NCBI GenBank assembly: GCA_944392515.1
Contig: CALXWV010000003.1
Location: forward strand, 1 to 59,260
Length of the DNA stretch: 59,260 nucleotides
Source: an uncultured Clostridia bacterium
GTDB taxonomy: Bacteria; Bacillota; Clostridia; TANB77; CAG-508
Direction: 5' to 3'
Shown here: positions 8,399-48,103 of the stretch, piece after piece
How the letters are laid out: each line of letters opens with the position of its first letter
Position numbering within the stretch: the first letter of the stretch is position 1
The notes under the pieces: model-generated
Databases searched by the model: none
What the model saw: the letters and a program-made list of their open reading frames with translations, nothing else
Told to the model about the DNA's origin: nothing
Position numbers and translations under genes: made by a program

Positions 8399-8521
8399 GA
8401 AAGTTTCTGAGGACGGAACTGGTAGCCGTAGCCCATCAATGATGTAGGAGATGTGGGAGTACCAACCCACCTAAACTTTCTTGACAATGGTAGAACTAAA
8501 TAATAGTTCTACCAATTTTTT
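8399..8521 (+). ncRNA. candidate stand-alone structured small RNA (~120 nt), family unknown
   Basis: Extended -10 promoter TGTATACT at 8385-8392. Closing stem GAAAGTTT (8399-8406) / AAACTTTC (8473-8480). Internal GTGGG/CCCAC and TGGTA/TACCA pairings. Intrinsic terminator GGTAGAACTA-AATAA-TAGTTCTACC (8489-8513) followed by a T-run. Confidence 0.4.
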
Positions 8522-14641: not shown

Positions 14642-14699
14642 TTAAAATTTTATATAAATAATATATTGACTTGCTTGACGAAATATAGTATAGTAATAT

Positions 14700-14846
14700 G
14701 CATAGGAAATGATATAAGCAGTGTGGGTGCTACCACCTTACATACACAGTACATAGCTATTGCCTTGATTATTGCGATAGTAGTAATTTTGAGCAAATAA
14801 TAAAAAAGCACCACATTACGCTTCGCCAAGCTATGTGGTGTTTTTA
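14700..14846 (+). pseudogene. internally deleted copy of the small hydrophobic-peptide (type I toxin-like) transcription unit
   Basis: Promoter TTGACT (14666-14671), 17-nt spacer, TATAGT (14689-14694). The leader is nearly identical to the minus-strand leader at 47640-47700. Only the last 15 codons (IAIALIIAIVVILSK*, stop 14798-14800) remain. The SD, ATG and first ~21 codons are missing. Terminator at 14808-14840. Confidence 0.45.
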
Positions 14847-14889
14847 CCATAAAATTTAGGTAGCACACATTTCTGTGGCTTCATTTCCT
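14802..14889 (-). ncRNA. convergent small RNA (antitoxin-like) of the degenerate locus
   Basis: Minus-strand TTGACA (14919-14924), 17-nt spacer, TATAAT (14896-14901). The transcript ends at the shared bidirectional terminator (CACCACAT/ATGTGGTG, 14809-14840) plus a T-run. The architecture parallels 47431-47512. Confidence 0.4.
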
Positions 14890-14984
14890 ATAATTATTAT
14901 ACATACTTTTAATATATTTGTCAATGAAATTTCGCACTAATATGTGAAAAAGGTTAAAAATTGTAATTTAGAAAAGGATGAAAT

Positions 14985-29945: not shown

Positions 29946-30302
29946 TGGTGGAGGTGGCGAGAGTCGAACTCGCGTCCAATTATTCTTCCATATTTACTTC
30001 TCCGAGTGCAGTTTATTTATTAGTTTCTAAATAAAATATTAAACAAACAAAATATTTTATTTATATCCATTTATTAATACCCATTACTTAAGTGGAATAA
30101 GCAACTTCGTTTCCTACTTTAAACGGCGCCTTATTCTAAGCAGTAGGCTCTAAGATAAGACGACACTGCAACTTAGGCAGCGTAAGCTAATTCTCTATCG
30201 TTAGCCTTTATATTTAATTTGCTTGATTTTAAGTGGCCAAAGCAACCATCCACTACTCGCTATAAATACTTCTAAATAACTGTCGAAACCATTTACACCC
30301 CC
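29946..30302 (-). ncRNA. ssrA: tmRNA (SsrA)
   Basis: On the minus strand the 5' end is GGGGGTGTAAATGGTTTCGACAG and the 3' end is GAGTTCGACTCTCGCCACCTCCACCA, a tRNA-Ala-like acceptor with a G3:U pair. The internal tag frame GCT AAC GAT AGA GAA TTA GCT TAC GCT GCC TAA gives ANDRELAYAA. Confidence 0.9.
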
Positions 30303-46641: not shown

Positions 46642-46719
46642 GGTGGATTTAGCGTAGTTGGTTAACGCGCCAGTTTGTGGCACTGGAGACCATGGGTTCG
46701 AGTCCCATATTCCACCCCA
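46642..46719 (+). tRNA. tRNA-His (anticodon GUG) with encoded G-1 and CCA
   Basis: An extra 5' G pairs with C73. Anticodon arm CCAGT-TTGTGGC-ACTGG, T-loop GTTCGAGTC. Confidence 0.9.
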
Positions 46720-46732
46720 TTTATTTAAACAT

Positions 46733-46807
46733 TGGGCTGTAGCCAAGTGGTAAGGCATTAGACTTTGACTCTAACATGCGCTAGTTCGAATCTAGCCAGC
46801 CCAACCA
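46733..46807 (+). tRNA. tRNA-Gln (anticodon UUG)
   Basis: Acceptor TGGGCTG/CAGCCCA, anticodon loop CTTTGAC, T-loop GTTCGAATC, encoded CCA. Confidence 0.9.
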
Positions 46808-47388: not shown

Positions 47389-47430
47389 TTAAATTTGACA
47401 AATGAATTAAATGTATGTATAATAAGTATA

Positions 47431-47512
47431 GAAAATGAGAACCACAGAGTGGTTGCCAAATTAAATGATAAATAAACCATTTCACTCGGCAAAGCAGAAT
47501 GGTTTATTTTTT
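47431..47512 (+). ncRNA. convergent small RNA (antitoxin-like) of the intact peptide locus
   Basis: TTGACA (47395-47400), 17-nt spacer, TATAAT (47418-47423). 5' hairpin AACCAC-AGA-GTGGTT. Terminator AAACCATT (47474-47481) / AATGGTTT (47498-47505) followed by T10. The terminator is shared with the opposite-strand peptide mRNA. Confidence 0.45.
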
Positions 47513-47513
47513 T

Positions 47514-47624
47514 TTATTTGCTTAAAATTATTACTAACGCAATAATCAAGGCAATAGCTATGATTGTAATACCTACTAAACTAAAGAATAGTAAGTATAT
47601 TAATTGTATTAATAAATCTTCCAT
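47514..47624 (-). CDS. 36-aa hydrophobic peptide, type I toxin-like (MEDLLIQLIYLLFFSLVGITIIAIALIIALVIILSK)
   Basis: Not in the ORF track because it is under 60 aa. An ATG at 47624 lies 6 nt after AGGTGG and the TAA is at 47514-47516. Its own promoter on the minus strand is TTGATT (47729-47734), 17-nt spacer, TATAGT (47706-47711). The ~75-nt leader contains TTGCCACCT, which can pair with the SD. Confidence 0.5.
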   Translation of the reverse strand: MEDLLIQLIYLLFFSLVGITIIAIALIIALVIILSK

Positions 47625-47769
47625 AGCACCACCTCGCTTTCTCACAGCTATACTGTGTATGTAAGGTGGCAACACACTCTGCTTATCTCATTTTCTATGC
47701 TAAATACTATACAATATTTACCAATAAAAATCAAGAACTTTATTTAAATATCCTTAATAATAAAATAAA

Positions 47770-47795
47770 AAAGCTACTTCATTTGAAGTAGCTTT
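47770..47795 (-). terminator. intrinsic terminator downstream of the Cys-rich mini-ORFs
   Basis: 12-bp stem AAAGCTACTTCA/TGAAGTAGCTTT with a 2-nt loop. On the minus strand it is followed by TTTTTATTTTA. Confidence 0.7.
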
Positions 47796-47820: not shown

Positions 47821-47937
47821 TTAGCAGCATCCTCTATTGTTTCCACCACAGCAGCAGCATATTAATATTAAGAATATAATTAAGAAACAGCAGTCGTTAT
47901 CTTTTCCAAAACAACCACATCCACATTTATCTGGCAT
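47821..47937 (-). CDS. 38-aa Cys/Gly-rich small membrane peptide (MPDKCGCGCFGKDNDCCFLIIFLILICCCCGGNNRGCC)
   Basis: Not in the ORF track. The ATG lies 8 nt after AAGGAGGA. It has a central hydrophobic helix flanked by Cys clusters and is a paralogue of the next ORF. Confidence 0.5.
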   Translation of the reverse strand: MPDKCGCGCFGKDNDCCFLIIFLILICCCCGGNNRGCC

Positions 47938-47980
47938 ATAAATCCTCCTTTCCATCTACTCCTTTATGAGTAGTTATTTA

Positions 47981-48103
47981 CTAGCAACCACAATTGTTGT
48001 CGTTTCCACATCCGCATCCACAGTTGTTGTTTCCACCGCAGCATCCGCAAAGTAAAAAGATTAATATTATGAACCATAACATATCTCCATTACAACCTCT
48101 CAT
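47981..48103 (-). CDS. 40-aa Cys/Gly-rich small membrane peptide (MRGCNGDMLWFIILIFLLCGCCGGNNNCGCGCGNDNNCGC)
   Basis: Not in the ORF track. The ATG lies 7 nt after GAGGGAGG. The design matches 47821-47937. The 64-aa plus-strand ORF at 47994-48188 is its antisense shadow. Confidence 0.5.
   Translation of the reverse strand: MRGCNGDMLWFIILIFLLCGCCGGNNNCGCGCGNDNNCGC

Follow-up and report, generated by a model that had tools for sequence, protein, structure and literature searches.

Two Gram-negative type I toxin–antitoxin systems, hok/sok and aapA1/isoA1, have a full-length toxin mRNA that is locked by a long-distance 5'-3' interaction, and removal of the 3' element by processing produces a form that is both active and sensitive to the antitoxin. 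Their sequences are unrelated to the locus described here, and their antitoxins overlap the toxin mRNA in its 5' part rather than at the 3' fold-back element. Convergent genes overlapping at their 3' ends, together with a small hydrophobic toxin, are found in txpA/RatA, and the bsrE/SR5 and yonT/SR6 systems belong to the same family as bsrG/SR4. In the bsrG mRNA of the B. subtilis prophage SPbeta, nucleotides 1–35 pair with nucleotides 232–262 inside the region to which the antitoxin is antisense (PMC3834814). Once the antitoxin opens this helix (P1), the helix at the Shine-Dalgarno (SD) sequence tightens and RNase III-dependent decay follows (PMC3834814). Since the 3' strand of P1 lies inside the antitoxin-antisense region, the antitoxin carries a same-sense copy of the toxin 5' end. 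In the par system of pAD1 (Fst/RNA I-RNA II), the SD is hidden by an intramolecular stem, and the toxin RNA also has its extreme 5' end buried in a helix (PMC7472228). Modules of C. difficile (CD0977.1-RCd11 and others), as far as covered by the sections of PMC7699646 drawn on here, are convergent, overlap at their 3' ends and encode small hydrophobic toxins with lysine-rich tails; they are largely prophage- or CRISPR-associated, and those sections make no mention of a 5'-3' fold-back.

The locus studied here lies in a stretch of 59,260 nt, which is referred to below as the window. An earlier note had described it as an unannotated type I toxin–antitoxin-like locus in which the toxin and sRNA genes converge, a description that holds across more than 30 loci, with toxicity being putative. 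We give a probability of roughly 55% to the reading that it belongs to an unannotated, chromosomal, type I toxin–antitoxin-like family in which the 5' end of the toxin mRNA folds back onto its 3' end, toxicity and the long transcript both being putative. The promoters, leader, ORF, hairpin and inverted modules that had been proposed were all located again, and the features are as follows:

47706–47734, minus strand: toxin promoter, TTGATT-17-TATAGT, with 9 of 12 consensus positions
47395–47423, plus strand: sRNA (antitoxin) promoter, TTGACA-17-TATAAT, with 12 of 12 consensus positions
47667–47698, minus strand: 5' module of the toxin mRNA (M5, nt 1–32), proposed 5' strand of the fold-back helix (folds, covariation, G·U excess)
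47663–47670, minus strand: cis anti-SD, GCCACCUU, pairing with 47628–47635 in the minimum-energy fold
47643–47657, minus strand: small leader hairpin CACAG(U)...CUGUG inside the anti-SD:SD helix, 89% of cells paired
47628–47635, minus strand: SD region, GAGGUGGU, the anti-SD partner in the minimum-energy fold
47514–47624, minus strand: ORF of a 36-aa hydrophobic peptide (putative toxin), including the stop codon (translation, homologous clusters, dN/dS)
47548–47562, minus strand: ORF-internal CAUAGCUAUUGCCUU, a second possible SD-sequestering partner (SD pairing in long-form folds)
47470–47509, both strands: common hairpin, the terminator of the sRNA and a 3'-UTR hairpin for the toxin strand (fold, covariation)
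47428–47458, minus strand: antisense of the sRNA 5' end, proposed 3' strand of the fold-back helix (folds, covariation, terminator-like score)
47430–47517, plus strand: predicted sRNA of about 88 nt (predicted folds)
14666–14924, plus strand: second copy, toxin-dead and of a different subgroup (comparison with the related locus L021)

The inverted-repeat arms (47420–47451 and 47675–47706) are 32 nt long and 78% complementary, and a further inverted segment joins 47452–47466 with 47659–47673. Within the window, the 13-mer ATAGAAAATGAGA occurs without mismatch at the two arms only. The arms are separated by only about 220 bp.

The locus probably carries a known fold-back design, that of the bsrG/SR4 kind, in a family that itself had not been named before. 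The co-varying inverted modules had been put forward as a feature new to type I systems, but helix P1 of bsrG/SR4 has the same layout (PMC3834814). The comparison with txpA/RatA and bsrG/SR4 made at the same time was the right lead, although its consequence, a same-sense copy of the toxin 5' end in the antitoxin, was not drawn. Like the present locus, bsrG/SR4 has a hydrophobic peptide (about 38 aa), a convergent antitoxin that is complementary to the toxin mRNA at its 3' end, and an antitoxin terminator directly past the toxin stop codon, where the A-rich end of the ORF templates the U tract (manual reading of L039). The Rfam consensus for BsrG combines an outer 5'-3' helix with an inner helix to the segment just past the stop codon, and pairing of M5 with the ascending arm of the common hairpin matches the latter. 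The differences are that the KKK tail of BsrG is missing from the peptide here, that the antitoxin is about 88 nt long rather than about 180 nt, that there is no separate toxin terminator downstream of the 3' arm, and that the locus is chromosomal and not carried by a prophage. Furthermore, the predicted sRNA has its start exactly across from the end of the proposed fold-back, which gives the two RNAs identical first 13 nt. Membership of Rfam family BsrG was rejected: RF01412 gave a single sub-threshold match, at 47429–47697 on the minus strand (13.6 bits, E 0.37, against a gathering score of 55 and 210 bits for the SPbeta positive control), and none in two other subgroups (L021 and L017). Between the peptide and BsrG, hhalign returned P 0.078 over 12 columns and BLASTP no alignment.

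The other systems differ in further ways. Convergent promoters, a common bidirectional terminator hairpin and a stem within the toxin RNA that covers the SD are shared with par/Fst of Enterococcus and its chromosomal homologues, as would be a helix enclosing the toxin RNA 5' end, but par has direct repeats in its DNA (DRa/DRb) and complementary RNA 5' ends, whereas the repeats here are inverted and the 5' ends same-sense. Complementarity of the par/Fst type between the 5' ends of the two RNAs was not significant when duplex energies were compared with shuffled sequences, and par-like complementarity of the sRNA 5' end to the toxin translation start was likewise rejected, its energies being at the level of shuffled sequences. 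The PXXXG motif, tryptophan and charged tail of Fst are all missing from the peptide. In contrast to hok/sok, the sRNA gene is located 3' of the ORF, and a conserved mok-like leader ORF is lacking. Pfam, NCBIfam and protein-cluster searches revealed no similarity of the peptide family to C. difficile type I toxins or txpA, and the locus departs from the C. difficile type in its single terminal lysine, its core-gene context and the lack of any phage, plasmid or viral match.

The peptide, its relatives and the second copy

The peptide encoded in the window is 36 aa long (MEDLLIQLIYLLFFSLVGITIIAIALIIALVIILSK; ORF 47624–47514, including the stop codon), and peptides of the family (36–38 aa) are fully hydrophobic with a single hydrophobic span, lack Pro and Trp, and end in a tail of only S-K with a single terminal Lys. 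It has no match in Pfam at E values up to 10 and none in NCBIfam, and a relationship with BsrG, with Fst or with any family of these two databases was looked for and not found. As in type I systems, the locus has a small hydrophobic ORF of membrane type that is conserved as a protein, and a predicted convergent sRNA gene that overlaps the putative toxin transcript.

The same architecture was recovered in 38 loci (12 from MAGs and 26 from metagenomes), all of them from uncultured gut Clostridia. No family in Pfam, NCBIfam or Rfam covers the locus, no source names it, and the 19 homologous protein clusters are all unnamed. About 30 loci have an intact ORF, and its median dN/dS of about 0.17 indicates purifying selection. 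Homologous toxin promoters average 9.2 of 12 consensus positions, and of 35 sRNA promoters, which are near-perfect sigma-70 promoters, 27 have all 12 and 34 have 11 or more. Copies in relatives, the search for which the earlier note had suggested as a check, retain the inverted modules, and these co-vary within each of more than 30 loci. The pattern is not due to chance, because the architecture recurs in 38 loci and the relation between the arms exceeds every control. The genomic context consists of core genes and is chromosomal, and an origin from mobile elements was rejected, there being no match to the loci in phage or plasmid records or in viral contigs (IMG/VR).

Several divergent copies are present per genome, and the window holds two; no others were found within its 59,260 nt. 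The second (14666–14924) had been reported as a degenerate copy at 14.7–14.9 kb with its own variant, TGCTACC, in both arms, and this was confirmed. It retains the 5' module, the hairpin, the sRNA module and the sRNA promoter (12 of 12), and has lost about 97 nt between ATAGCT repeats, comprising the SD, the start codon and about 21 codons. A 23-mer around CAUAGCUAUUGCCUU is identical between the two copies. Elsewhere in the family, decaying copies have also lost the ORF or its expression signals and retained the sRNA gene, and other signs of decay or recombination include replaced 5' ends (L008 and L013) and flipped hairpin loops.

Proposed pairing between the two arms

The matching inverted modules most likely represent both sides of one helix, formed when the toxin RNA folds back on itself. 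Their co-variation within each locus, as first noticed in the window, is well borne out: across 28 pairs, 89.5% of cells pair, against 38–59% when the partner is slid, and 12 pairs (32 cells) have changed on both sides, a level reached by none of 500 shuffles. Duplex energies range from -29 to -45 kcal/mol (z -5 to -10), and pairing of M5 (47667–47698) with 47428–47458 is seen in every minimum-energy fold of the long form. The strand on which pairing occurs can be judged from the differences between the arms. Read in the sense of the toxin strand, these are of the G·U type in 54 cases and of the A·C type in 14 (alignment), or 56 and 13 by per-locus pairwise alignments, and six of seven recent single changes are G·U-compatible, some having arisen in the sRNA arm (manual reading of pairwise alignments). 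The excess of G·U over A·C indicates that a toxin-strand RNA contains the antisense of the sRNA 5' end, and it favours pairing inside a transcript of this strand that continues beyond the hairpin; part of the excess could stem from a strand bias in the mutation spectrum. An overlap of the two transcripts limited to the common hairpin, as initially supposed, is probably wrong.

It could be argued that the arms resemble each other through concerted evolution at the DNA level, by gene conversion or template switching between the inverted repeats of an ancestral promoter and leader duplication, with no role in RNA pairing. The spacing of only ~220 bp would suit such a process, as would the evidence that multi-copy loci decay and recombine (the deletion in the second copy, the 5' ends of L008 and L013, the flipped loops). 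However, identity between the arms runs in tracts of only about 13 nt, and the interrupting differences (e.g., UAAGC vs ACCAC) are conserved across all subgroups. Similarity begins at the transcription start and is absent from the promoter spacers. Conversion also predicts equal numbers of G·U- and A·C-type differences, not the 54–56 against 13–14 seen here, and recent changes in the sRNA arm oppose the transcription-linked mutation bias expected there (manual alignment reading). We regard this explanation as very unlikely.

Leader, common hairpin and transcripts

The leader had been thought to pair with the SD region, and it does so in the minimum-energy fold, where the cis anti-SD meets the SD; this helix pairs in 97% of cells across 23 loci, with a compensatory change in L003. 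In long-form folds the SD pairs with the ORF-internal segment, and opening the SD is predicted to cost 8–16 kcal/mol in every RNA form modelled. A locus of this kind might also be no toxin–antitoxin pair at all, and instead encode a small membrane protein of an ordinary kind, with an antisense RNA and a structured leader to tune its expression. Consistent with this, the peptide has no charged C-terminal tail of the kind usual in Fst, BsrG and the C. difficile toxins, and the loci, which sit among core genes, had no match in the phage, plasmid and viral collections that were searched. It is nevertheless an improbable reading, given the type I signature of a tiny, fully hydrophobic ORF with an SD that is multiply sequestered (at least 8 kcal/mol in every modelled form), an antisense promoter stronger than that of the toxin, several divergent copies per genome, and decay in which the ORF or its expression signals are lost and the sRNA gene is retained.

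The common hairpin has a perfect stem of 12 bp (47470–47481 with 47498–47509), eight pairs of which have changed on both sides across loci. It is followed by nine T on the plus strand; across the two strands the U tract is long for the sRNA and weaker, interrupted, for the toxin. Nucleotides 14–28 of the mRNA are an alternative partner of the ascending arm. M5 and this arm form 13–17 bp in all groups (z -2.4 to -4.7), as judged by per-locus duplexes and a matrix of cognate and non-cognate pairs, column-wise covariation having been dropped because indels misregister the subgroups. In 14 of 17 loci the energy difference between the hairpin and the M5:ascending-arm pairing is small (-5.6 to +1.0 kcal/mol). 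On the toxin strand, a terminator-like site (a small hairpin and a U-rich tract) is present at 47454–47440, minus strand; it supports read-through of the common hairpin, as does the interrupted U tract.

The sRNA is predicted to consist of 13 single-stranded nt, a 5' hairpin (47440–47454), a linker, and the terminator hairpin with its U-run. Its promoter, 5' hairpin and terminator with U-run were found in all loci; the 5' hairpin pairs in 94% of cells, with two compensatory positions, and the sRNA has no match in Rfam. Three candidate partners were rejected, namely the ascending arm of the mRNA hairpin for the 5' module (inconsistent among loci, little cognate preference), the sRNA's own terminator arm for the same module (no cognate preference), and a partner in a short mRNA for the common first 13 nt, where the matches were confined to the YLLF codons and were weak and inconsistent.

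In RNA libraries of chicken and bird gut, contig depth over the ORF region is 33–544, compared with 0–3 in the flanks; chicken-gut metatranscriptomes have depths of 100–500 there. RNA contigs of L034, the best-covered relative, start 11–15 nt downstream of the predicted start site and mostly stop 12–17 nt past the hairpin, short of the proposed 3' arm, and those of the window locus stop similarly, so that ends of this kind recur in two loci and six or more libraries. Because these contigs stop before the 3' arm, the long toxin form is either not the abundant species or non-existent. Processing as in hok or aapA1 could explain abundant RNA species without both arms. The contigs are assembled and unstranded, other sequence contexts join at the same point, and their ends may be branch points between paralogues in the assembly; a reading of them as RNA 5' and 3' ends was therefore rejected. 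Some contigs (X39, X47 and X56) do span the 3' arm, and these could represent mRNA and sRNA merged into one contig, a fusion with the neighbouring rpoB-leader transcript, or DNA. The sRNA was not seen as a separate species among the assembled contigs.

The recurrent ends 12–17 nt past the hairpin (two loci, at least six libraries) would be expected if the toxin mRNA ended at the common hairpin, the only region of overlap, and the sRNA 5' module were a trans-acting mimic of the 5' module of the mRNA, both competing for the ascending arm and the SD. In several subgroups the 5' hairpin region of the sRNA is complementary to the ascending arm (-12 to -15 kcal/mol), and a UUGCC/ACC motif resembling the cis anti-SD is kept in the sRNA. 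This complementarity is, however, lost in many loci (L009, L011, L030, L003 and L015: -4 to -9 kcal/mol) and shows little cognate preference (-10.7 vs -9.6 kcal/mol). Duplexes of the first 45 nt of the sRNA with the mRNA body are no better than shuffled ones (z -1.2 to +1.7), and pairing with the SD would span only 4–6 bp (manual sequence reading). A short mRNA also offers no conserved partner for the co-varying first 13 nt, and a mimic does not predict the asymmetry of G·U over A·C. A trans-acting mimic thus seems unlikely, and the fold-back within a longer toxin transcript is the reading pursued below.

A proposed mechanism and its meaning

Under the fold-back reading, the weak promoter would produce an mRNA for the 36-aa membrane peptide, with its SD sequestered by the cis anti-SD of the 5' leader, and the consensus promoter on the opposite strand would produce the sRNA of about 88 nt, ending at the hairpin just past the toxin stop codon. 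At least part of the toxin transcripts would read through the hairpin and end at or near the antisense of the sRNA 5' end, and pairing of nt 14–28 of the mRNA with the ascending arm could help RNA polymerase to pass the hairpin on this strand. The first ~32 nt of the mRNA would then fold back onto the 3' segment, as in helix P1 of bsrG or the fbi of hok. Because this segment is the exact complement of the sRNA 5' end, the 5' ends of the mRNA and sRNA would be same-sense and co-vary. The sRNA, fully complementary to the last ~88 nt of such a long mRNA, would displace the mRNA 5' end on binding, so that the adjacent anti-SD would be released and could hold the SD more tightly, and the long sRNA:mRNA duplex may be a substrate of RNase III. 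When the 3' arm was blocked in the model, the predicted cost of opening the SD rose in 13 of 16 loci.

A bolder and doubtful possibility is that the common hairpin is a switch, with the 5' segment of the mRNA (nt 14–28) as a built-in anti-terminator and the antitoxin competing for the same arm. The M5 segment would pair with the ascending arm as this emerges, and the polymerase would run on and complete the fold-back; the antitoxin could then choose among termination, locking of the fold-back and RNase III decay. The complementarity of the 5' element to the hairpin arm co-varies between subgroups and is almost equal in energy to the hairpin. If the switch were real, the SD, the hairpin arm and the 3' end would be alternative partners, each excluding the other two, of one 5' element of about 30 nt.

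The findings add a toxin–antitoxin-like family without any database name. It is so far confined to uncultured Clostridia from the gut of chickens, humans, cattle and rabbits, shows high expression in vivo, and is present in several divergent, apparently non-cross-reacting copies per genome. Covariation over about 30 loci provides comparative evidence of unusual clarity for a 5'-3' fold-back lock combined with a 3'-overlapping antitoxin, a design that has so far been based mainly on structure probing in one Bacillus system. Where the two RNAs of a convergent pair share their starting sequence, one should look for a concealed fold-back helix and a longer toxin transcript.

Layout, distribution and decay of the locus

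A sequence check of the window located, each at its proposed position, all the elements from which an earlier note had read a type I toxin–antitoxin-like locus at 47395–47734:

47734–47706, minus strand: toxin promoter, TTGATT-17-TATAGT, with a ~75-nt leader downstream
47624–47514, minus strand: 36-codon ORF encoding MEDLLIQLIYLLFFSLVGITIIAIALIIALVIILSK
47470–47481 with 47498–47509: hairpin 3' of the stop codon, with a 12-bp perfect stem
47395–47423, plus strand: sRNA promoter, TTGACA-17-TATAAT (12/12), directed toward the shared hairpin
14666–14924: second copy, both arms with a sequence variant of their own, SD and ~21 codons gone

Nine T follow the shared hairpin on the plus strand, and the predicted length of the sRNA is ~88 nt. 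The first ~35 nt past each promoter form an imperfect inverted repeat (47420–47451 with 47675–47706, 78%, plus a 15-nt extension), and the two repeat sites are the only exact matches in the window to the 13-mer ATAGAAAATGAGA. No family in Rfam, Pfam or NCBIfam covers the RNAs or the peptide. Within the ORF, CAUAGCUAUUGCCUU (47548–47562, minus strand; also 14753–14775, plus strand) can pair with the SD–start region as a second anti-SD, and the 23-mer around it has the same nucleotides in the two window copies and is near-invariant across loci, beyond what the protein sequence needs.

Searches with the ORF returned 19 protein clusters, all metagenome-derived and none of them named. The search of relatives for further copies that the earlier note had proposed was productive: scans with peptide alignments recovered 12 loci from MAGs that carry the label uncultured Clostridia or Clostridium, some MAGs having two, and a further 26 in gut metagenomes, the window's own sequence being carried chiefly by chicken-gut runs. 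Nothing resembling these loci was found in phage, plasmid and IMG/VR collections. The parts come in one order in all complete loci, namely toxin promoter, 5' module, anti-SD, small hairpin, SD and ORF (36–38 aa), then an A-run, the hairpin, a variable linker, the antisense of the sRNA 5' module and the sRNA promoter. Purifying selection acts on the ORF, for which 91 pairs give a median dN/dS of 0.17. The sRNA promoter scores 12/12 in 27 of 35 loci and the toxin promoter 9.2/12 on average; a stronger sRNA than toxin promoter is the usual asymmetry in type I systems.

The loci sit between core genes. In the window, one copy neighbours hisS and murT and the other a sortase, tRNA-His/Gln, a CYTH-domain protein gene and mutL, while L034, the relative with the best RNA coverage, neighbours tRNA genes and the rpoB leader. 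The tRNA-His and tRNA-Gln genes lie at 46643–46807; in L034 (268–610 and 1370–2108), tRNA-Gly, Gly and Cys are upstream and the rpoB leader downstream. Sites adjoining tRNA and core genes are possibly a preferred kind of intergenic site. Elsewhere in the window are two tandem Cys/Gly-rich small ORFs of 38–44 aa, each with a hydrophobic core, MPDKCGCGCFGKDNDCCFLIIFLILICCCCGGNNRGCC (47821–47955, minus strand) and MRGCNGDMLWFIILIFLLCGCCGGNNNCGCGCGNDNNCGC (47981–48103, minus strand), the former with a strong SD, a terminator downstream (47770–47795) and no match in Pfam or NCBIfam, as well as a skipping-rope RNA (RF02924, 45 bits; 8402–8477, plus strand) and a tmRNA whose tag is ANDRELAYAA (29946–30302, minus strand).

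The second copy, which falls in another sequence subgroup than the intact window locus, is toxin-dead, ~97 nt (SD, start codon, ~21 codons) being absent between two ATAGCT direct repeats. Since it retains an intact hairpin and sRNA module together with a 12/12 sRNA promoter, it reads as an orphan antitoxin gene. In run X43, a related genome has an intact ORF joined to the hairpin and 5' module of this subgroup. Several other family copies have decayed, with the toxin disabled and the sRNA gene retained. Two loci (L013 and L008) keep the ORF and sRNA gene but have the 5' module and anti-SD swapped for unrelated DNA 5' of the ORF, and in L026 and L029 the start codon is mutated to ATA or the SD is short by 1 nt; these are varied ways of silencing the toxin. 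In the closely related loci L014 and L032, the loop of the shared hairpin (homologous to window 47482–47497) is flipped, GCTCTGCCAAGC versus GCTTGGCAGAGC, which looks like inversion via recombination within the stem.

The inverted modules as a proposed fold-back helix

The modules can be recast as a helix of the toxin strand, in which the 5' module (the first ~32 nt of the toxin mRNA) faces the antisense of the sRNA 5' module. Across the 28 pairs of this fold-back helix 89.5% of cells are paired, against 38–59% with a slid partner, and both sides have changed in twelve pairs (32 cells), values attained by none of 500 shuffles, so that the within-locus co-variation noticed earlier is real. Changes on both sides also occur at eight pairs of the shared hairpin; the anti-SD:SD helix is paired in 97% of cells, with a compensatory change in the most divergent locus, and the sRNA 5' hairpin in 94%, with two compensatory positions.

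The sRNA 5' module might instead be a same-sense imitation of that of the mRNA. A conserved common partner was sought and none was found, the sRNA 5' part pairs with the mRNA body no better than shuffled sequences do, its match to the ascending arm of the hairpin is absent in many loci, and no consistent partner for the 13 nt that open both RNAs turned up in a short mRNA. Gene conversion between the arms would leave symmetric arm differences, but the arm-to-arm transitions are asymmetric, with G·U 54 versus A·C 14 in the alignment and 56 versus 13 in per-locus pairwise alignments. Over both of these the data favour direct pairing within one RNA, from which wobble-compatible differences in the sense of that RNA would be expected. 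Half of the A·C cells are at the final pair of the helix and most others in two poorly aligned loci, and of seven recent single changes, as we read the pairwise alignments, six preserve the toxin-strand G·U pair, changes in the sRNA arm included. The simplest explanation of the pairing and the G·U excess would thus be a toxin-strand RNA that has the 5' module and, further along, the antisense of the sRNA 5' end.

Such a long form, running through the shared hairpin to the 3' arm, has a ~30-bp terminal helix in the fold of every locus and is ~20–35 kcal/mol more stable than a short form ending at the hairpin; the z of the duplex is -5 to -10. On the toxin strand the antisense of the sRNA 5' hairpin, followed by CUCAUUUUCU, scores terminator-like. 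Behind the shared hairpin the sRNA strand has a long U tract and the toxin strand an interrupted one.

RNA evidence and comparison with known systems

In chicken and bird gut RNA libraries, contigs (unstranded assemblies) reach a word depth of 33–544 across the ORF region, with flanking DNA at 0–3, so toxin-side RNA is abundant in vivo. Contig ends cluster 11–15 nt past the predicted start and 12–17 nt past the hairpin; since in two runs other sequence contexts join at the same point, these may be branch points between paralogues and not RNA ends. Contigs of X39, X47 and X56 reach the sRNA +1 or beyond, which can also reflect merged transcripts, transcripts of neighbouring genes, or DNA. In two bird-gut RNA libraries, adapter-attached cDNA ends lie at window 47637 (5 nt upstream of the SD) and ~47502 (the hairpin start), at depths of 33–88, and could mark processed RNA species with the SD and ORF only.

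The par/Fst systems have convergent promoters, a bidirectional terminator and an SD-hiding stem in common with this locus but depend on direct repeats giving complementary 5' ends (PMC7472228). Membership was rejected, as these defining repeats and 5' complementarity are lacking here, and the window peptide has none of the Fst motifs. In the C. difficile modules the genes are likewise convergent with a 3' overlap, but the toxins are lysine-rich and prophage-borne.

By analogy, bsrG/SR4 seems a much better fit than par/Fst. Probing showed that bsrG nt 1–35 pair with nt 232–262 (helix P1); SR4 is complementary to the bsrG 3' end, P1 3' arm included, and upon its binding nt 1–33 turn single-stranded, the helix at the SD is extended from 4 to 8 bp, and the mRNA is then degraded by RNase III (PMC3834814). 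When the 3' arm was blocked in silico, the cost of opening the SD rose in 13 of 16 loci. The Rfam BsrG model gave a sub-threshold match spanning exactly 47429–47697, in which its outer helix falls on the fold-back helix, its inner helix on that between 5' module and hairpin arm, and its SD stem on the anti-SD:SD helix. In the SPbeta locus the antitoxin terminator directly follows the stop codon, and the inner helix is to that segment. The window locus would, by this analogy, work like bsrG/SR4, but with a score of 13.6 bits, no match of the model in two other subgroups and no detectable relationship between the window peptide and the BsrG toxin it is not assignable to that family.

The toxin transcript and a possible second partner of its 5' module

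The type I reading, with a putative toxin and antitoxin, is well supported in silico and by expression. For the framing repeats, which the earlier note had not recognized from described type I systems, the best explanation is a fold-back helix resembling P1 or fbi, with precedent in bsrG/SR4; its 3' strand would be the antisense of the antitoxin's 5' end. Covariation and wobble asymmetry accordingly point to a toxin transcript longer than the one first assumed. It may be that neither arm is present in the abundant RNA species; this could reflect processing like that of hok and aapA1, or the fold-back model may be wrong.

In every subgroup, nucleotides 14–28 of the toxin RNA are also complementary (with G·U) to the shared hairpin's ascending arm, though the arm varies between subgroups. 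This helix has 13–17 bp (-14 to -21 kcal/mol, z -2.4 to -4.7), and preference for the cognate arm is clear in subgroups 2 and 3. In 14 of 17 loci the hairpin and this alternative lie close in energy, the gap being just -5.6 to +1.0 kcal/mol. The 5' element might thus also act as an anti-terminator of the shared hairpin.
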